Below are positions 3,000 through 14,845 of a DNA stretch of 39,893 nucleotides, one piece after another (within the stretch, counting starts at the first letter, position 1; every line of letters starts with the position of its first letter). The notes under the pieces were generated by a model. The model did not search any database and was not told where the DNA came from. It was given only the letters and a program-made list of their open reading frames with translations. The stretch is from Clostridia bacterium (lineage in GTDB: Bacteria; Bacillota; Clostridia; TANB77; CAG-508). The stretch covers positions 1-39,893 of the forward strand of contig JAAWEC010000100.1 in NCBI GenBank assembly GCA_022794095.1. Reading direction: 5' to 3'. The position numbers were made by a program, and so were the translations under genes.

Positions 3000-3156
3000 G
3001 TAAAAACTTAATTAATTGGATATTTTTTTCGAAATTTCTTTTGTTAGTTTCCAGATTATAATTTTTCTAACAATAAAAAAAATAATGATAAATAATAAAA
3101 CTTTTTTAATCATGAACAAATTATACTCTATATTTTCTCATTTGTCAACAAAAACT

Positions 3157-3684
3157 TTACGACATAATTCTACAAATTCCTACACTCACAAGCATTCCAA
3201 CAATATCTGCTGCTAAGCAAGCTATCAAAACAAATCTTGTTTTTTTTATTTTTACACAACTAGTATAGATAGCTATAGTATATAGTGTTGTTTCTGTTGA
3301 GCCCATAATTGTAGATGCTATCATACCAATAGTTGTATCTACTCCATATGTTTTCATTATGTCTGTTGCTACTGCAATAGAGCCACTTCCAGAGATTGGT
3401 CTTAGCATTGCAAGTGGCATAATTTCACTTGGAAAATGAATTACATTTAAAAATGGCATCACAAAACTAATTATTATGTCTAAAATCCCTGAACTTCTTA
3501 ATGCTCCAATTGCTACAAATAAGCCAATTAAAGTAGGGAGAATACTTATAACTATTGACATTCCTTCTTTTGCACCATCTAAAAAGTCATCAAAAACTTT
3601 GTTTTTTTCAATCAACCCATATATAACAATAATTAATATTACAAGTGGCATAGCTAAATTAGATACAAAACTAAAAATTTGCAT
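3157..3684 (-). CDS. spmB: spore maturation protein B-like membrane protein (nucleoside-transporter/FeoB-C fold family)
   Basis: 175-aa polytopic membrane ORF immediately downstream of the spmA-like gene, as in the Bacillus/Clostridium spmAB pair. Confidence 0.7.
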   Translation of the reverse strand: MQIFSFVSNLAMPLVILIIVIYGLIEKNKVFDDFLDGAKEGMSIVISILPTLIGLFVAIGALRSSGILDIIISFVMPFLNVIHFPSEIMPLAMLRPISGSGSIAVATDIMKTYGVDTTIGMIASTIMGSTETTLYTIAIYTSCVKIKKTRFVLIACLAADIVGMLVSVGICRIMS

Positions 3685-3733
3685 TTTTCATGCTCCTTTC
3701 TGCAATAATATATTTGAGTTGATTATATTTATT

Positions 3734-4325
3734 TTAAAAATTTTTAAACTTTACTTTTTTTATCAATATTTTTGCTACAAAAATTCCTGCTACAGCTGCA
3801 CATATTGTGGCAATCCAAACAGGAAAAACAATTGCTGTTGGATTTTCAGAACCTAGCGAATTTCTAATGGCAATTACAGTTGTTGGAATTATTTGAATAG
3901 AAGCCGTATTTAATACTATAAACATTAACATTGAATTACTTAAAACTTCTTTTTTAGTATTTTCCTTTTGCATTGATTTCATTGCTTTTAATCCAAGTGG
4001 AGTTGCTGCATTTCCTAATCCTAAAATATTTGCAATCATATTCATAGAAATTTCTTTTTGAATTTGTTTATTTTTTTTCATTTCTGGAAACAATATCTTT
4101 ATAATAGGAAGTAAAAAAAATGTTAATTTATCTATTATTTTTGTTTTGCTTGCAACTTGCATCATGCCATTCCATAAGCAAATAGTTCCGTAATAAATTA
4201 ATTGATAAGCTAATAGCATCATTTGTGCTTTGAAAAATTGAAGAATTTAGTTTTTCTAAATTCCCTGAAAAAATCGCGTATGAAAACGAAATGATAATAA
4301 ATACTGGCCATATTTTATTTAACAT
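3734..4325 (-). CDS. spmA: spore maturation protein A-like membrane protein; needs a +1 shift at CGG-A (4190..4187)
   Basis: ORFs 4128..4343 and 3734..4222 overlap and join as ...AISLSINLL-G-TICLWNGMMQVASK. AAGGTGA RBS then ATG 4325. LGLGNAATPLGLKAM motif in the C half. Confidence 0.75.
4187..4190 (-). other. recoding site: in-frame CGG followed by A; the +1 frame GGA continues SpmA
   Basis: Minus strand: aat tta tta C GGA act att tgc tta tgg aat ggc atg atg. CGG is in frame with ORF 4128..4343, GGA with ORF 3734..4222. Confidence 0.75.
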
Positions 4326-4448
4326 ATATATCACCTTAAACAATTTTATTCAAAATTAAATTTTTTATTACAATATAATTGACCTACATTTTTATTTGTG
4401 ATATATTATATATGGATTGTCTAAATAACTTTTAAGGAGGAGATTGAT

Positions 4449-4707
4449 ATGAAATCAACTGGAATTATAAGAAGAGTGGACGAGCTTCGGAAGAGTAGTT
4501 ATACCAATAGAAATCAGAAATCAATTCAATATTCTTGAAAAAGACCCTATTGAAATATATGTACAGGGTTCATCAATTGTGCTAAAAAAATTTGAACCAA
4601 ACTGTATCTTCTGTGGTAATAATGAAGATTTGTTATCTTATAATGACAAATTAATATGTCCTGATTGCGCTAAAAAAATCGGCAAACTTGAACTAAAAGA
4701 AAATTAA
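4449..4707 (+). CDS. abrB: AbrB/SpoVT-family transition-state regulator-like protein; needs a +1 shift at CGG-A 4488-4491
   Basis: Missing from the ORF track because the shift splits it. GGAGGAG RBS then ATG 4449. Read with the shift: MKSTGIIRRVDEL-G-RVVIPIEIRNQFNILEKDPIEIYVQGSSIVLKKFEPNCIFCGNNEDLLSYNDKLICPDCAKKIGKLELKEN. The span is 259 nt, which is 86 codons plus one extra base. Confidence 0.8.
4488..4491 (+). other. recoding site: in-frame CGG followed by A; the +1 frame GGA gives the conserved Gly of the AbrB DELGRVVIP motif
   Basis: gac gag ctt C GGA aga gta gtt ata cca ata gaa atc aga. Confidence 0.8.
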
Positions 4708-4737
4708 TTATATTTTCTTTTTAAAATTTGTATTTCT

Positions 4738-4770
4738 AAAAAGGCATAAAAATAATTATGCCTTTTTTTG
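4738..4770. terminator. bidirectional intrinsic terminator between abrB-like (+) and rsmI (-)
   Basis: AAAAAGGCATAAaaatAATTATGCCTTTTTTT: 8-bp GC-containing stem flanked by an A-run and a T-run. Confidence 0.75.
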
Positions 4771-4789
4771 ATTTTATATTAAATACATT

Positions 4790-5605
4790 CTACACAAATT
4801 TTTGATAAATTTCGTTTTTATTTAATCCTCTATCTTTAGCTATTTTTTTTATAATTTCTTTTTTCTGTAGTCCTTGATTTTCATATAGTTTATAATGTTC
4901 TTCTAAAGTTAAATTTTCAAAATTATTTTTTTCTTCAATTTTATTATTTTTTTCTATAATTAAAACCATCTCACCTTTTAAATTTTCTGATACTTTTATT
5001 ATTTCTTCTATATTTCCTCTAATAAATTCTTCATGAATTTTAGTAAGTTCTCTTGCCAAAACAACTTGTCTATTTTCTAATATTTCTTTTAAATCTTTTA
5101 ATGTTGATAGCAACTTATGTGGTGCTTCATATAAAATGATTGTTTTCTTACTTGCCTTTATCTCTTCTAATTTTTCTTTTCTTGTTTTTTTATTCAGTGG
5201 CAAAAAACCTAAAAATACAAATTCCTTTGTATCAATACCAGAAGCAATTAATGCATTTATCATTGCACAAGCTCCAGGAATTGGAATAACCTCTATTTGT
5301 TCTTCAATACATTTTTTTATAATTGCTTCACCTGGATCACAAATTCCTGGTGTTCCAGCATCTGAAACCAATGCAATATCTAGCCCCTCTTTTAACTTTT
5401 CTATTAAAATATTAGTTTTTTCATCTTCATTATGCCTATGATTGCTAATTAACGGTTTACTTATTTCAAAGTGATTTAATAATTTTAATGTATGCCTTGT
5501 GTCTTCTGCTGCAATTAAATCAACATTTTTTAGCACATTAATTGCTCTTAATGTAATATCTTCTAAATTTCCAATTGGTGTTGCCACAATATATAATTTC
5601 CCCAT
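4790..5605 (-). CDS. rsmI: 16S rRNA (cytidine1402-2'-O)-methyltransferase RsmI
   Basis: 271 aa starting MGKLYIVATPIGNLEDITLRAINVL...IAAEDTRHT, the typical RsmI tetrapyrrole-methylase-fold N-terminus. Confidence 0.9.
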   Translation of the reverse strand: MGKLYIVATPIGNLEDITLRAINVLKNVDLIAAEDTRHTLKLLNHFEISKPLISNHRHNEDEKTNILIEKLKEGLDIALVSDAGTPGICDPGEAIIKKCIEEQIEVIPIPGACAMINALIASGIDTKEFVFLGFLPLNKKTRKEKLEEIKASKKTIILYEAPHKLLSTLKDLKEILENRQVVLARELTKIHEEFIRGNIEEIIKVSENLKGEMVLIIEKNNKIEEKNNFENLTLEEHYKLYENQGLQKKEIIKKIAKDRGLNKNEIYQKFV

Positions 5606-5648
5606 TTTATTCTCCTTTATATAATAATACTTTAAGAAATAATACTAA

Positions 5649-6395
5649 CTATTTAATAATATTATAAATTTCTTTAATTTCTTTTGTATATTTTCCATTT
5701 TCATTATAAATATATAAATTATTTTGTACCTTTAAAAAAGGATTTGCATTTTTTATACCTTTTATTAAAATCAATTTTGGCTCACTTTTTTTATTTGAAT
5801 AAACAAAACGTATTACCTTAGGTTCTATTTTATATTTCCTCATAACACTTAGTATATCTACTAATCTATCTGGTCTATGTACCATATAAAATTCACCTTT
5901 ATCTTTTAATAAATCCTTTGATACCTTGATAAAGTCGTCTAATGTAGCTGTTGTTTCATGTCTGGAAATTATTTTCTTTTCTTCTTCATTTTTTATTCCA
6001 GTTCCTTTTTTCTTATATGGTGGATTTGTAACAATTGCATCAAAAGTATTTTTTTCTAATTTTTTATTTATATTTAAAATGTCCTCATTTATTATTTTGA
6101 ATTTATTTTCTAAATTATTTAATTTAATACTTTTTTTTGCCATTTCATAAACTTCTTTTTGAACTTCTATTCCTATTATCTCTTTTAATTTTGTTTTTCC
6201 ACATAATAAAGTCGCAATTATTCCTGTTCCTGTTCCTAAATCTAAAACCTTGGAATTTTCTTTTATGTCTTTTGCAAAATTTGATAATAATACACTATCA
6301 ATTCCAAAACAAAATCCTTTTTTGTTTTGAATTATTTTTAAATCTTTAAATTGTAAATTTTCTATTTTTTCATTTTCACTTAATTTAATTTCCAT
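5649..6395 (-). CDS. class I SAM methyltransferase, tRNA1(Val) adenine37-N6-methyltransferase-like (YabB/TrmN6 type)
   Basis: 248 aa with LKIIQNKKGFCFGIDSVLLSNFA, SAM motif LDLGTGTGI and catalytic VTNPPY. Confidence 0.75.
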   Translation of the reverse strand: MEIKLSENEKIENLQFKDLKIIQNKKGFCFGIDSVLLSNFAKDIKENSKVLDLGTGTGIIATLLCGKTKLKEIIGIEVQKEVYEMAKKSIKLNNLENKFKIINEDILNINKKLEKNTFDAIVTNPPYKKKGTGIKNEEEKKIISRHETTATLDDFIKVSKDLLKDKGEFYMVHRPDRLVDILSVMRKYKIEPKVIRFVYSNKKSEPKLILIKGIKNANPFLKVQNNLYIYNENGKYTKEIKEIYNIIK

Positions 6396-6832
6396 TTCCT
6401 TTTCCTTTTATTTAAAATTTTTGAAAAATTAAAATTTATTTTTAATTTTTTTATTTTATTTTTAATTTTATATTTTATTTTCTTTTTTTATTTTTACTTT
6501 TTTATTTTTTTATAAATTTAAAAATTTTTTCTCTTAACTTTTGTAAAAACTTTTGAGAAAAATGACCTTTCTCATTTTTACTTTTTTCAAGCTCAAAACA
6601 TGAATATTTTTATTTCTCAAACTTTATTTTTGTTTTATGTTTATTTATACAATTGATAATATATATGCTTTCTTTCTCTTTTGCCCCATAGCATTTATCT
6701 TTGTTAATATGTTTGAATTCAATTTTATTTTACCTTAATATTATAAAATTTGTAAACCTTTCTTTATTTCCTTCATATTATACTACAAAACACATATTTT
6801 TGCAAAATTTAAAAAATAGGAGACTAAAAAAA

Positions 6833-7015
6833 ATGGATAGAATTTTTCTTAACGAAAATAATAGAGGAGAAGAAAAAACTTCTCCAAAAAAATCTTTTGA
6901 TTTTAAATTATATAAAAAAAACACATTAAATTCTATTAATGATGTTGAAAAATTTTTAAATAATTTTCATCATTACTTTAAATACTTTAAATTATATAAA
7001 ATAATAAAAAAATAA
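6833..7015 (+). CDS. hypothetical small basic protein (60 aa)
   Basis: TAGGAGAC RBS about 10 nt before ATG 6833. It is the only plausible ORF in a 1-kb AT-rich spacer. Low-complexity sequence with no recognisable family. Confidence 0.25.
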   Translation: MDRIFLNENNRGEEKTSPKKSFDFKLYKKNTLNSINDVEKFLNNFHHYFKYFKLYKIIKK

Positions 7016-7420
7016 TTAAAATATTAAAAATTTTTACAAAACGTAGATACATCTTGCTTCTAAAAATTTTTTTACTTTTTACACAATTATTTTATAAGAA
7101 TATAAAATAAATTATAAAAAATAAATATTTTTTTAATTATTTTTTCATTTTTTATTTTTATATTTTATTTTTTTACACTTCTTAAAAATTTTTCCTAATA
7201 AAAATTTTTATATTTTTTGCTTTTTTTCATATACTTTTCTTATTATTTTAAGCTGTTTTTTGTATTTATGTATACCGTTTTTTGCTTTTTATAATATCGA
7301 CATTTTCCTTTATTCCCATGCTTTTCGCTCATTTATTCTCTTCTAAAATGCATTACTTTTTCTAAGGTTTCTCCTTATCTTTTTCTTCTTGTTTTTTGGT
7401 GTACATAACCCCGTTTTTTT

Positions 7421-7963
7421 CTATTTATTTTGTCTTGTGTAAATTTCCTTAAACTCTTCACTTTCATTTCCATCAATCAAAAACTTAACCTTATTTACTT
7501 CATTTAATTCTGTTAAAGTATTAACAATACAATTTATAATATTCATTTTTTCCTTTTCATCATCTTTAGAATAATTCAAAAACTCATTTGAAAAATCCAA
7601 AACAATGCAATCATTTTCTAAATAATTTTTATTTAGTTTAGTATTATCTGGCATCACTTTTTTATTTTTCTCATTCTTAGGACCTTCAATCAACAAATTA
7701 ATCAATTTATCATAAGGATTATTTATAATTTCCTTAATGTCAATAAGCCTTGCTTCTGGATTTATCTCATTTGTGTCTTTAGATGGAAAATACAAACTAA
7801 CAATTGTCTGTCTTACTTGTTCATCTGCAATTTCCTCTTGAGGAACATATTCCTCTACAATTGTTTCTTCCTTATTCTTTACATACTTAATTGCAAAATA
7901 GCCTCCCAACAAAATAACAACTAACAAAACGAAAAAAATTATACCTATCTTTTTTCCTTTCAT
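7421..7963 (-). CDS. GerM-like (GerMN domain) sporulation/germination lipoprotein-like protein
   Basis: N-terminal TM/signal (KKIGIIFFVLLVVILLGG), then a domain with SLYFP...NPYDKLINLLIEGP...VLDFS...IVNTLTEL..VKFLIDG, typical of GerMN. The internal ATG 7963 is preferred over the ORF start at 8023. Confidence 0.55.
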   Translation of the reverse strand: MKGKKIGIIFFVLLVVILLGGYFAIKYVKNKEETIVEEYVPQEEIADEQVRQTIVSLYFPSKDTNEINPEARLIDIKEIINNPYDKLINLLIEGPKNEKNKKVMPDNTKLNKNYLENDCIVLDFSNEFLNYSKDDEKEKMNIINCIVNTLTELNEVNKVKFLIDGNESEEFKEIYTRQNK

Positions 7964-8076
7964 AATCACTTCATTCCTTTCTAACTTACACAAAGTTGAT
8001 AATAAAAAATTAAATCTAACCATATCTCATTGTGTTTTTATATTTACTAACATCATATTACTTGTTTGTCCATTTT

Positions 8077-8207
8077 AGAACAAAAGGAGCATGATTAAAA
8101 ATTTTTGACCTTTCAGATTACTTTATATGCTCCGTCTTTGTTCATCTGCCAAATTTACTTTAGCAAATTTGTGTAGAATGTGTTTCTGTTATAGGAAAAT
8201 CGCATTT
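8077..8207 (+). repeat. structured intergenic repeat element, copy A (two hairpins; candidate ncRNA or IS200/IS605-type PATE-like element)
   Basis: Stem 1 is 8077-8094 / 8127-8143 (AGAACAAAAGGAGCATGA ... ATGCTCCGTCTTTGTTC). Stem 2 is 8150-8171 (CAAATTT actttagc AAATTTG). The tail TGTAGAATG..TTATAGGAAAATC follows. Homologous to 14611-14754. Confidence 0.6.
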
Positions 8208-8452
8208 GGGTCATTCAGTGCCTGTCCCAATTATGCCCAAATGGGTCACTCGGTGCCTGTCCCAGATATGCCCAAATGGGTTACTCGGTGCCTGTCCCAA
8301 TTATGCCCAAATGGGATACTCGGTGCCTGTCCCAGATATTCCCAAAAGGGATACTCGGTGCCTGTCCCAGATATGCCCAAATGGGTCACTCAGTGCCTGT
8401 CCCAGATATGCCCAAATGGGATACTCTGTACCTGTCCCAATTATGCCCAAAT
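8208..8452 (+). repeat. tandem array of 7 x 35 bp with no spacers (GGGTCACTCGGTGCCTGTCCCAGATATGCCCAAAT consensus)
   Basis: Units start at 8208, 8243, 8278, 8313, 8348, 8383 and 8418. Two subtypes: CCCAATTATGCCC in units 1, 3 and 7; CCCAGATATGCCC in units 2, 5 and 6, with unit 4 a variant (CCCAGATATTCCC). Unit 2 has 20 of 35 G+C, far above the surrounding sequence. Confidence 0.95.
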
Positions 8453-8475
8453 GATAACATTCCCATTTTGTCCCA

Positions 8476-8504
8476 TTGACAAATTGCCTTTTTCCGTATA
8501 AAAT
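8476..8504 (+). promoter_or_regulatory. sigma-A promoter of the activase-fusion gene
   Basis: TTGACA (8476-8481), 17-nt spacer, TAAAAT (8499-8504). It lies 24 bp downstream of the last 35-bp repeat. AAAGGAAG RBS before ATG 8527. Confidence 0.55.
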
Positions 8505-8526
8505 TAGGCTGAAAGGAAGTTTTTTT

Positions 8527-11500
8527 ATGAGTGATATTAGTGATATTAAAGGTGATTTTAATATAGATTTTGATTCAAATGATAATGCTGTTTTTAATGA
8601 TGTTTTACATGTTGGGCTTGATGTTGGTTCTACTACTGTTAAGATTATTGTTATGGATGGCTATAGGAATACTGTATATAAGGATTATAGGAGACATTTT
8701 TCGGATACGAAGAATACTGTTTGTGAGGTTTTGGAGGATTTGCTAAAGAGGTTTCCTTTGTGTTCGTTTACTTTGGCTCTTACGGGTTCAGGGGCTATGT
8801 CTGCTGCTAAGTTTTTGGGCGTTAGTTTTATTCAAGAGGTGGTTTCTTGTAAACGTGCAGTGGAGAGGTATATTCCGAAGACTGATGTTGTTATTGAGCT
8901 TGGAGGTGAGGATGCTAAGATTATTTATTTTGACCAGTCTATTGAGCAACGTATGAATGGGACTTGTGCTGGTGGTACTGGTGCATTTTTGGATCAGATG
9001 GCTTCTTTGCTTCATACGGATACTGCTGGTTTGAATGAATTGGCTAAGGGTTTTTCTACTATTTATCCTATTGCTTCTCGTTGTGGGGTTTTTGCTAAAA
9101 CTGATATTCAACCTTTGATTAATGAGGGGGCTGCTAGGGAAGATATTGCTGCTTCTATTTTTCAGGCTGTTGTTAATCAAACTATTAGTGGTTTGGCTTG
9201 TGGTAGACCTATTCGTGGGAATGTTGCTTTTTTGGGAGGTCCTCTTAATTATTTGTCTGAACTTAGGACAAGGTTTATTGAGACTCTTAATTTAAAAGAT
9301 GATGAAATCATTGTTCCTGATGAGGCTCATCTTTTGGTTGCAAAAGGCGCTGCTTTGGATTCTTTTAATTCTGATGAAATTACTACTAATGAATTGGAAG
9401 CCAAAATTGTTAATTTGAAAAATTCACATGATAATACTACACATCCTTTAGAACCTTTATTTAAAAATGAGAATGAGTATCAAGATTTCAAAAATCGACA
9501 TAATAATGCAAAGGTTGAAAAGGCTCAATTAGACGGTTATGAGGGTGATTGCTATCTTGGTATTGATGCTGGTTCTACTACTACTAAATTGGTTTTGATT
9601 GATAAAGATGGAAAACTTTTATATTCTCTTTATGGTAACAATGAAGGAAATCCTTTACAAAGTGTTATGAATATGTTAAAGGATTTATATAAAGTTTTGC
9701 CTGAAAAAGCAGTTTTAAGATACAGTGGTGTCACAGGATATGGTGAAAAGCTAATTCAAACTGCTTTAAATGTTGATTTAAATGAAATTGAAACTATTGC
9801 ACATTATACTGCTGCCAAAACTTTTGAGCCTAATGTTACAGCAATTGTAGATATTGGTGGTCAAGATATGAAGTATATTCGCATGAAAAATGGCTCAATT
9901 GATAACATAATGTTAAATGAAGCTTGTTCTTCTGGTTGTGGTTCTTTTATTGAAACATTTGCAAAAAGCTTAAACCTAGAGATTTCACAATTTGTTGAAG
10001 AAGCTATCAAGTCTAAAAGACCTGTTGACTTAGGTTCAAGATGTACTGTTTTTATGAACTCTAAAATTAAACAAGCACAAAAAGAAGGGTATTTGGTTGG
10101 AGACATTTCAAGTGGACTTTCTTATTCAGTTATTAAAAATGCAATTCAAAAAGTTATGAAGGTAAGAGATGTTGAAACTCTTGGTAAACATATTGTTGTT
10201 CAAGGTGGAACTTTTTATAATGATGCAGTTTTACGTGCTTTTGAATTGATTGTTGGCAAAAATGTTGTACGACCTGATATTTCTGGTCTTATGGGTGCAT
10301 ATGGTATGGCACTTTTATCAAAAGAACAATATGAAGCTAATTTGGATATGGAATACAAGTCTACTATTTTAAAGGAAAATGAGATAGATAATTTAAAGAT
10401 AAACATAACACATGCTCGTTGTAATAATTGTGAAAATCATTGTAAATTAACTATTAACAAGTTCAGCAATGGACAAATTCATGTATCTGGAAATCGTTGT
10501 GAAAAAGGTAGTGGCATGGTTACTAAAACACAAGAATTGCCAAACCTTATCCAATACAAACAAGATAGAATTTTTAATTATAAACCATTAGAGGAGCATT
10601 CTGCACCAAGAGGAATTATAGGTATTCCAAGAGTTTTAAATATGTATGAAGATTATCCATTTTGGTTCACTTTTCTAACATCTTTAGGTTTTCGTGTTAT
10701 TCTTTCTGAGAAAAGTACACGTAAAACATATGAAAAAGGAATGGAATCAATGCCATCTGAATCTGTTTGCTACCCAGCAAAACTTTCTCATGGTCATATC
10801 GAAAGCTTAATAGAACAAGGAATTACAACAATATTTTATCCTTGTATACCATATTCAAGAAAAGAATACGAAAAAGCAGATAATCACTATAACTGCCCTA
10901 TTGTAATTTCTTATTCTGAAGTACTTAAAAATAATGTTGAAGGACTAAAAAATGATAACATAAAGTTTATAAATCCATTTTTGCCATTTGAAAAGAAGAA
11001 CTTAGTTAAGAAAATAATGGAATTAAAAGAATTTGAAGAATATCATTTTACAAAAGCAGAACTCTTAAAAGCTGCTGAAAAAGCTGAATATGAATATCAA
11101 AAATGCAAAAAAGATATTAGAGATAAAGGGGCCAAAACTGTACGTTATTTAGAGGAAAATAATTTAAAAGGTATTGTTTTAGCAGGTAGACCATATCATG
11201 TTGACCCAGAAATAAATCACGGAATTGATACTTTAATTACATCTTTGGGGCTTAGTGTTTTAACAGAAGATAGCATTTGCGATAAAACAGAGGCAAAAAG
11301 ACCTATCCGTGTTGTAGACCAATGGGTATATCACGCAAGATTGTATGCAGCAGCAGATTTTGTTGGTAAACATGATTGTTTAGAACTTGTTCAATTAAAT
11401 TCTTTTGGCTGTGGTGTAGATGCTGTTACAACAGATCAAGTTGAAGAAATTTTAACAAGTTTTGGTAAGATGTATACTTTAATTAAGATAGATGAAGTTA

Positions 11501-13853: not shown

Positions 13854-13942
13854 AAACTCCTCCTAACATATATCACATTTTATGAATAAATATGTTGAAA
13901 CGTGCTTGGTTTTATGATATAGTATTTTTGAAAGGATTAAAA

Positions 13943-14599
13943 ATGGAAAAAAACTATTATGATATTTTACAAGTTAATAAAAATGCTTCTCCTGAAATTA
14001 TAGAAAAAGCTTATAAAGTTTTAGCAAAAAAATATCATCCAGATTTGCAAAAAGAAAAAGATAAAAAAGAAGCAGAAGAAATTTTAAAAGAAATTAATGA
14101 GGCATATGACGTTTTGTCAAATTCAGAGAAAAAGAATAATTATGATAATTTATTAAAAGAAAAAGAGGAATTAGAAAATAATCAAAAGTTTCAACAACAA
14201 AATAATTCAAATAATTCTAATGATTATCAAAATACATATACTTCAAATATTTCTAAAGATGAGCTTCTTCGTAGACAAGAGATTATACAAAAGCAACAGC
14301 AATATAATAAGCAGGTAGCAGAACAATTAAAACATGAACAGGAATTAGCTTATCAAGAACAACTACAATATGCTAGACAAAAGGCTTACCATGATGCTTA
14401 TATTCAAGATTTGAAAAATCGTGGTTATAAAATTCGCTATAAAAAGAGTTTTAAAGATTACATAAATGGATTTATTGCACTGGCAATTACTATACTAATT
14501 TTGTTTTTCATTTATCAGATTCCTTTTGTGAAAAGTTATTTTTGGAATTTATATAATGAGAATGAACTCGTACACTTCATTCGAAACATACTTAACTAA
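13943..14599 (+). CDS. J-domain (DnaJ-like) protein with Gln/Asn-rich linker and C-terminal TM segment
   Basis: NYYDILQVNKNASPEIIEKAYKVLAKKYHPDLQ (HPD motif) and C-terminal FIALAITILILFFIYQIPF. ATG 13943 preferred over 13892. Confidence 0.75.
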   Translation: MEKNYYDILQVNKNASPEIIEKAYKVLAKKYHPDLQKEKDKKEAEEILKEINEAYDVLSNSEKKNNYDNLLKEKEELENNQKFQQQNNSNNSNDYQNTYTSNISKDELLRRQEIIQKQQQYNKQVAEQLKHEQELAYQEQLQYARQKAYHDAYIQDLKNRGYKIRYKKSFKDYINGFIALAITILILFFIYQIPFVKSYFWNLYNENELVHFIRNILN

Positions 14600-14610
14600 A
14601 TCAATCAAAA

Positions 14611-14754
14611 AGAACAAAAGAGGCATGATTAAGATTTTATGACCTTTTAGATAACTTTTCATGCCTCGTCTTTGTTCTCCCTCGAAAATTGCAAAACAAT
14701 TTTCTGTGGAACGCTTGATATTATAGGAAGTTCAAAGAACTTTCCTATATTATC
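14611..14754 (+). repeat. structured intergenic repeat element, copy B (three hairpins)
   Basis: Stem 1 is 14611-14628 / 14659-14678. Stem 2 is 14684-14704 (GAAAATTG caaaa CAATTTTC). Stem 3 is the palindromic unit at 14716-14754 (GATATTATAGGAAGTTC aaa GAACTTTCCTATATTATC). Collinear with copy A, with compensatory stem changes. Confidence 0.65.
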
Positions 14755-14804
14755 AAAATGATGTATTTTTCTCCAGTCCTAAAATACCTCAAACACAATT
14801 GCCA

Positions 14805-14845
14805 AAAATAGGATTTTGGAGCTATTCCAAAATCCTATTTTTTTC
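14805..14845. terminator. strong bidirectional intrinsic terminator between the J-domain gene/element B (+) and the T4SS-like operon (-)
   Basis: AAAATAGGATTTTGGA gctat TCCAAAATCCTATTTT: stem of about 15 bp, A-run upstream and TTTTT downstream. Confidence 0.8.

Follow-up and report, generated by a model that had tools for sequence, protein, structure and literature searches.

REP sequences and their compound forms, BIMEs and REPINs, are hairpin-forming units of about 35 bp that occupy extragenic DNA at high copy number in E. coli and Pseudomonas, where they are accompanied by a Y1 transposase-like protein named RAYT or TnpA-REP (PMC3333891, PMC3116915, PMC5581495). Di Nocera et al. (2013) described RAYT-like genes flanked by terminal inverted repeats (TIRs) and not by canonical REPs; the gene was called TIRYT and the element TIRtron. 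Most TIRs carry the motif GGGGWSAS, and TIR families, made up of singles, dimers and clusters, are 'moderately abundant' (PMC3733652). In the survey of Quentin et al. (2018), 20 of 26 TIRYTs belong to TnpA-Y1 subclass 2.1, which consists of long proteins with a C-terminal helix-turn-helix (HTH) domain (Bac_DnaA_C, HTH_23 or HTH_28); no REP-like sequences were found near subclass 2.1 genes (PMC6006769). TIRtrons with their TIRYT genes and subclass 2.1 are probably the same. Bertels et al. found RAYT Group 1 also in Clostridia, with flanking 16-mers that are only modestly abundant, and linked only Groups 2 and 3 (Proteobacteria) to highly abundant 16-mers (PMC5581495). Here we analyse a tandem array of 35-bp units at positions 8208-8452 of contig JAAWEC010000100.1 (assembly GCA_022794095.1, a Clostridia bacterium); the whole stretch of 39,893 nt is referred to as the window.

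The array is, in our judgement very probably, a local REP/BIME-like cluster of dispersed, transposase-associated repeats of the REP/RAYT type, closest to the TIRtron variant. Assignment to the TIRYT type was made by comparing features (motif, length, HTH, inverted repeats) with the published descriptions. Most likely the array does not serve specifically to control the neighbouring gene, and its position beside a −35 box and inside a second repeat, element A, is incidental. Any effect on the promoter of the downstream activase-fusion gene would be a side effect. What is distinctive in comparison with the known systems is the strict phasing of the 35-bp arrays and their unusually high abundance in a Firmicute.

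Structure of the array

Tandem Repeats Finder (TRF) returned one array in the window, at 8207-8453, with a period of 35, 7.1 copies, 89% matches and 0 indels. Printed in register, it resolves into seven head-to-tail units, from 8208-8242 to 8418-8452, as an earlier note on this DNA had described. The units are GC-rich, also as stated there (20 of 35 positions in unit 2), the GC content being 51.8% in the array against 28.9% in the window. A 29-mer of the unit gave 6 matches in the window at up to 3 mismatches and 0 in shuffled sequence. A repeat length of 35 bp and partial dyad symmetry are shared with CRISPR. The earlier note was nevertheless right to reject that identity, as there are no spacers, the period equals the unit length without indels, and the unit recurs at many loci, in either orientation. 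The subtypes AATTAT and AGATAT are present as reported; their order is 1-2-1-2-2-2-1, so that the interleaving claimed for them is only partial.

An assembly artefact can be dismissed: no two of the seven units are identical, and contigs of independent mouse-gut runs match and tile them exactly. The contigs cover the array in order (8084-8241 in X2; 8305-8373 and 8357-8900, each in X1 and X2), an X9 contig matches 8252-8381 over 130 nt with 0 mismatches, and contigs of independent runs contain all 7 unit variants. The distance of 24 bp from the last unit to the start of the −35 box was given correctly, but this gap is not free of repeats. Its sequence, ending ..TTGTCCCA, is that of a degenerate eighth unit, and repeat-derived DNA therefore directly touches the −35 box (Table 1).

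Dispersal of the unit

An exact-pattern scan with CCTGTCCCANNTATNCCCAAA (18 specified bases) was run over one representative genome per species for 185,579 species. Multi-copy matches were returned only from three related, uncultured mouse-gut Clostridium metagenome-assembled genomes (MAGs), namely CAOKGO01 (34 loci), CATLUC01 (21) and CANORX01 (2), while the single matches in ~15 unrelated genomes compare with ~17 expected by chance. A scan of JGI metagenomes gave single, chance-level matches only. The earlier treatment of the array as a locus-specific element thus does not hold, since the whole-genome search for the unit led to dozens of dispersed loci. No description of the 35-bp family was found in the literature searched.

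The census of the fetched loci comprised 172 units in 85 arrays with, as lower bounds, 1-4 units per array. Spacings between units were exactly 35 bp in 73 of 87 cases and otherwise 34 or 42-51 bp. By crude longest-ORF (open reading frame) gene calls all 85 arrays are intergenic and have unrelated genes as neighbours; often they follow a stop codon or separate two convergent genes. Where the flanking genes are co-directional, the arrays showed no orientation bias with respect to them (~19 same, ~23 opposite). Relative to each other, neighbouring arrays on opposite strands were always ordered (−)(+) (12/12), with the GTGCC ends inward and the CCCAAA ends outward. Single units, inverted doublets of fixed polarity and clusters are also the forms taken by REPs, although the clusters found here are mostly direct (head-to-tail) and not alternating; TIRs, too, are found away from their gene as singles, dimers and clusters. 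Target-site duplications, which are not expected from Y1 transposases, were not evident at the array flanks, and this fits Y1 chemistry.

In one subfamily (L026 1076-1187, L043 7566-7679, and L021, L035 and L038) the period is 42-43 bp, because 7-8 nt, GTGCAAA(A), are inserted within the arm, after CCCAAA and before GGG. There are also periods of 45 and 51 bp.

Contigs from four metagenomes that hold the window's strain were placed on 7700-8900. Depth was 7-17 on the single-copy flanks and 100-1000 over 8069-8437, where many contigs diverge into different flanks. In these metagenomes the unit reaches a depth of 55-87x that of single-copy DNA, in contrast to the moderate abundance of TIR families. 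The repeats account for short-read assembly breaks at many intergenic sites in this mouse-gut lineage.

Short head-to-tail units at many intergenic loci are also formed by pneumococcal BOX (boxA-boxB(n)-boxC), mycobacterial MIRU and S. aureus STAR, whose copy number varies between strains; STAR units are GC-rich in an AT-rich Firmicute. To our knowledge, none of these families is accompanied by a flanking transposase-like gene of its own, and the 35-bp unit is unrelated to them in sequence.

A Y1/HUH transposase-like gene bracketed by units

In locus L023 of CAOKGO01, the sister MAG, an ORF of 267 aa (3673-4476, minus strand) lies between three (−) units and one (+) unit. Its product matches Pfam Y1_Tnp with 44.2 bits (cut-off 23). 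The HUH motif (H60 and H62, as H60-I-H62) and Y119 in RYIHQNP are invariant across 14 and 23 homologues. Near the C-terminus the segment G-x-TQ-x-QI-x-RVLG is conserved, helices are predicted at 227-261 with a predicted local distance difference test (pLDDT) score of 80-89, and HTH_23 gives a weak match to residues 233-264 (E 0.004, below the gathering score). As a RAYT-like Y1/HUH protein that exceeds RAYT in length and ends in an HTH, the product corresponds to the description of TIRYT. When the AlphaFold 2 (AF2) model was submitted to Foldseek, the top 27 matches were all Y1 transposases at a probability of 1.0, with E. coli RAYT (4er8) at rank 2. Homologues numbered 1747 at E <= 1e-10, many of them on contigs of ~1 kb, a length that would result if assembly stopped at repeats on either side.

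The window organism has the gene too. A 1284-nt contig (X1, X2) that is 98% identical to L023 3533-4814 carries units at both ends. Its depth in X2 is 13.6, against 14-17 for single-copy DNA of the window, while the flanking units are 55-87x deeper; in four runs the Y1 gene stood at single-copy depth. An ORF between inverted arrays at L037 6391-6744 was rejected as a transposase candidate, being a glycosyltransferase-2 fragment.

Orthologues of the Y1-like protein at 85, 73, 71, 68, 64 and 53% identity were examined. The gene is single-copy and vertically inherited, with a GH15 glycosidase gene on one side and gap (GAPDH) on the other. Of the orthologues with enough flank, 5/5 retain GH15 and 4/5 also GAPDH; counted over all lineages with enough flank, the numbers are 6/6 for GH15 and 5/6 for GAPDH. 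All 6 orthologues are bracketed by inverted arrays (L077, L078, L082, L085, L086, L088); that of 85% identity, L077, is a 1-kb contig that consists of only the gene and its flanking units, with units at both contig ends. The association of gene and unit was seen in eight lineages. The period is 35-36 bp in every orthologue in which at least two units were resolved (36 bp in L082; units at 1325, 1360 and 1395 in L085, and at 1320, 1355, 1390 and 2284, 2319, 2354 in L088). One single-copy, vertically inherited Y1 gene flanked by repeats is a REPtron-like arrangement. Inverted repeats that bracket the gene, as in L023, in the 1284-nt contig of the window organism and in the six orthologues, are equally a trait of TIRtrons, with the difference that phased head-to-tail 35-bp arrays stand here in place of single TIRs.

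At the conserved GH15-gap site of CATLUC01 (L042 3440-3540, compared with L023 3440-4880) the spacer has no Y1 gene, and a head-to-head (−)(+) doublet is left. This suggests how inverted doublets elsewhere may have originated. The CATLUC01 MAG still contains 59 or more units, the majority in arrays of 1-2.

Core, arms and hairpins

Position frequencies over 166 units gave a core CCTGTCCCA-NN-TAT-N-CCCAAA, conserved at 95-100% in most positions, followed by an 11-nt variable arm (T/A)GGG-NN-A-N-TC-(G/A). In the window array the near-invariant core reads GTGCCTGTCCCA-NN-TATGCCCAAA, and a core (G/T)T(G/A)CCTGTCCC(A/C) is conserved across the orthologue lineages. Reverse-complemented, the core reads TGGGACAG in the window family, a match to the TIR motif GGGGWSAS at 7/8 positions, and GGGGACAG in L086 and L088, a match at 8/8.

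Within arrays a short hairpin, GCCC-AAAT-GGGY, can form across the junction of two units, by pairing of the 3' part of the first with the 5' arm of the second. Singletons read TTTGGGCAT..GTGCCTGTCCC..ATGCCCAAA and fold into a 10-12 bp hairpin whose loop contains the core, with folding energies of −20 kcal/mol as RNA and −13.5 as DNA. Between lineages the arms differ and yet remain self-complementary: GTGCCC-AAAA-GGGTAC; ACCCC-TTAA-GGGGT; ATTATCCA-CAAA-TGGATAAT; TTAACCA-AAAA-TGGTTAA. As in REP/RAYT systems, the repeat sequence co-varies with the gene lineage. When 21 units of six lineages were aligned without gaps, 68% of the cells of a 7-bp helix were paired, against 58% in shuffles. The covariation score was 0.281 against 0.138, a value reached by 0/500 shuffles and higher than that of every slid register, and changes on both sides occurred in 4/7 helix pairs. 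Since the aligned sequences are related, this covariation is supportive of the hairpin and not conclusive.

Further dispersed copies were present 5-9 kb from the gene in L112 and L114, the chance expectation for CCTGTCCC being ~0.04 per 20-kb locus. In L114, whose Y1 protein is 71% identical, dispersed copies at 4417-4500 and 14685 read TGAGACA-CTTAAGACCTGTCCCTT-TGTCTCA, with the conserved core in the loop of a lineage-specific hairpin, like the singletons of the window family.

Proposed mechanism and points against it

By analogy with E. coli TnpA-REP and the TnpA of IS200/IS605, the 267-aa protein would recognise the hairpin and core on single-stranded DNA, and would cut and rejoin such DNA. 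Cutting and rejoining could seed units and groups of units into intergenic DNA, where arrays might grow or shrink by repeated insertion beside existing units, or by slippage or unequal exchange. We infer both the mobilisation of the units by the protein and the mode of array expansion from this comparison. Two mild signs speak against movement of the units by the Y1-like protein. The units show no strand bias with respect to genes, although IS200/IS605 insertion is strand-biased, and in CATLUC01 they have outlived the gene, so that their maintenance may not need the enzyme, unless the gene lies elsewhere.

Several further observations weigh against a cluster of the REP/TIRtron type. The L023 protein scores 52.2 bits with the NCBIfam REP_Tyr_transpos equivalog (NF047646), below its cut-off of 80. 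The AF2 model is of moderate quality overall (pLDDT 66), and sequence searches of the PDB with the protein or with a 14-sequence profile gave no match. Array units fold weakly, strong hairpins being found in singletons and in other lineages. The REP foot GT[AG]G is missing, neither GTAG nor GTGG occurring at either foot, where the consensus has GTGC (GGTGCCTG). Unit densities are ascertainment-biased because loci were fetched for containing the unit, and the array lengths were called lower bounds above because MAGs are short-read assemblies and possibly collapsed. The absence of the foot separates the family from REPs, as do the extra HTH of the protein, its score below the RAYT equivalog cut-off and the Firmicute host. 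From TIRtrons it is set apart by its host, a mouse-gut Clostridium, the main text of the two reports containing no case from Clostridia or Firmicutes (PMC3733652, PMC6006769).

With these points counted, the assignment to a REP/TIRtron-type family provides a clean Firmicute case in which an abundant repeat family is linked with a long Y1 transposase homologue that bears an HTH. The 2018 survey of the superfamily reported no repeat partners for subclass 2.1, and the window family would be one. The unit sequences supply concrete oligonucleotide substrates for probing these enzymes. A bolder version, to which we give little credence, would make this a candidate for the first well-resolved REPIN/RAYT-style partnership in Clostridia, in which a domesticated TIRYT would keep up a large population of strictly phased 35-bp arrays and the host would use them as copy-number-tunable promoter or chromosome-structure elements bound by the HTH.

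Alternative explanations

The units might instead be sites for chromosome structuring or for a host factor, kept by selection since a host protein or the HTH of the transposase binds them genome-wide, with mobility being secondary. The core is near-invariant over the 166 units of three species although orthologous flanks have diverged by ~10%, arrays persist at orthologous sites across species, and a Y1 gene that is present once and keeps its synteny down to 53% identity is what domestication would lead one to expect; REP elements are bound by IHF, gyrase and Pol I (PMC6006769). Conservation of the core could, however, equally reflect ongoing copying or gene conversion, and CATLUC01 lost the gene at the conserved site and kept its units. 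We regard this explanation as unlikely.

A modulator of the activase promoter based on a variable number of tandem repeats is a somewhat fainter prospect, and one that is compatible with a REP/TIRtron-type cluster. Slippage would here change spacing or topology upstream of the promoter, making expression phase-variable. Unit number does differ between relatives. L036, from the sister MAG, is the orthologue of window 3001-10323, with flanks ~89% identical; it shares with the window the site of element A and the array as well as their left junction, but has 3 units. In a 151-nt contig from the RNA-sequencing (RNA-seq) library of a ~97%-identical strain, 8220 is joined directly to 8431, so that one unit is left, and 31-mers span the junction; the contig runs from element A through this unit and the promoter region into the start of the activase gene. 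The orthologous site thus has 7 units in the window, 3 in L036 and 1 in this strain, and the units, perfectly phased and highly similar, are a good substrate for slippage. Set against this, variation within a population was not seen, the same-strain samples carrying all seven variants; the L036 count was possibly collapsed by short-read assembly; and the array lies upstream of the −35 box and not between promoter elements. What survives of the copy-number-variable control region proposed in the earlier note is the difference in number, and not the dedicated control role; an effect of copy number on the activase promoter is possible. Strain comparison by way of the GerM protein met contigs that break at repeats.

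A contig of the same species in the ENA, L002 (coverage 3.9), has at 1-520 an element A that is complete, hairpin 3 having both its arms, followed by another A and at least 5 units, including variants absent from the window. It represents either a real strain difference or a chimeric assembly induced by repeats, and was not relied on.

It is very improbable that the array is, as suggested earlier, a local operator or iteron array, with regulator sites specific to the divergent gerM-like and activase promoters: although it ends directly upstream of a near-consensus promoter and its core is conserved at 95-100% per position, as for a protein-binding site, the unit occurs at at least 85 other intergenic sites beside unrelated genes in both orientations and flanks the Y1/HUH gene in every lineage examined, the copy number at the locus varies while the promoter is conserved, and in one relative without any array the homology to the window begins exactly at 8476, the same −35 box. 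Dispersal largely refutes this local reading.

Just as little can be said for a transcribed structured repeat RNA, be it a small RNA, a 5' leader or a continuation of element A: the 151-nt RNA-seq contig and the small hairpins possible in each unit would suit it, but Rfam 15 at the gathering threshold found only two tRNAs in the whole window and at a permissive threshold nothing relevant in 7900-8600 (best matches E >= 4), minimum free energy z-scores of the array (−1.38 on the plus strand, −1.48 on the minus strand) are not unusual, units lie on either strand relative to flanking genes, and the RNA contigs are sparse, of low depth, possibly DNA carry-over, and come from relatives 90-97% identical. 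Nor does element A act as a leader that continues into the array, as had been supposed, for it is a separate dispersed repeat family.

Element A and neighbouring features

Table 1. Features at and near the array, with window positions
Feature	Position	Strand	Remarks and evidence
Germane/GerM-domain sporulation gene	7421..8023	−	Divergent from activase gene; Pfam PF10646, E 2.3e-21
Element A copy	8077..8201	+	Depth 10-75x over single-copy flanks; compensatory pairs in three stems
35-bp array	8205..8452	+	7 units; TTT of the first 5' arm precedes the register; TRF, register print, contigs
Degenerate/truncated eighth unit (GATAACATTCCCATTTTGTCCCA)	8453..8475	+	Abuts −35 hexamer; sequence, L036 alignment, X36 loose end before 8475
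Sigma-70-like promoter (TTGACA-17-TAAAAT) of activase-fusion gene	8476..8504	+	Promoter scan, 11/12 matches; conserved in L036
CoA-enzyme activase fusion, BcrAD_BadFG (two ATPase domains) + DUF2229, 1464 aa	8527..12921	+	Pfam, ORF list
Element A, second copy, complete	14611..14760	+	blastn; between stop codon of DnaJ-domain gene and terminator-like hairpin

The repeat that adjoins the array, element A, is a very abundant one, with a unit of ~141 bp and three hairpins, and is unrelated to the 35-bp unit. In the copy at 8077, and also in L036, the second arm of the third hairpin is replaced by the array. About 70 copies were present in ~450 kb of fetched loci, often head-to-tail with a period of ~141 bp and up to 4 copies (for example L032 1-501, L024 1-388 and L052 5906-6316). 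Compensatory changes were found in 13/30 predicted pairs, with all three stems represented; stem 1, for instance, occurs as GGAGC/GCTCC, GAGGC/GCCTC, GTGGC/GCCAC and GTGGGC/GCCCAC, and the stems of the 14611 copy carry such changes relative to those of the copy at 8077. Element A has no match in Rfam. It may be a DNA element like a miniature inverted-repeat transposable element, or a structured RNA, and may be more unusual than the 35-bp array itself. A third stretch of element A lies at 31890-31922 of the window.

A with an array resembles the A-B(n) module of BOX only superficially, A and the 35-bp unit being independent and usually apart; a single BOX-like module was accordingly rejected, as most A copies and arrays were found apart. 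The two do adjoin repeatedly (window 8201-8208, L010 ~6740-6800, L006 1800-1820, L023 4518-4814). In L006 the end of a unit is fused to the first bases of A, and in L023 the Y1 gene and its (+) unit are separated by a partial A. These contacts suggest shared insertion preferences, perhaps for hairpins.

Just after the second copy of A, a strong terminator-like hairpin (AAAATAGGATTTTGG..CCAAAATCCTATTTTTTT) is located at 14800-14845. The A copy would therefore be transcribed in the 3' untranslated region of the DnaJ-domain gene (13892-14599).

Of the 563 bp that separate the gerM-like from the activase gene, some 400 derive from two selfish or domesticated repeat families. As the intergenic region is mostly repeat-derived, regulatory inferences from its 'structured' character should be discounted. 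The promoter is native sequence and not derived from the repeats. The flanking genes and promoter are as first described, Pfam domains and the promoter scan being in agreement. The activase-fusion gene starts downstream of the array at ATG 8527, and for the GerM-domain gene the ATG at 7963 is the likely true start.

Downstream of the gerM-like gene, 6435-6513 and 6900-7250 are extremely AT-rich (GC 6-13%) and contain low-complexity repeats rich in T. At 29046-29290 the minus strand carries a pair of adjacent tRNA-Ser genes (anticodons GCT and TGA).

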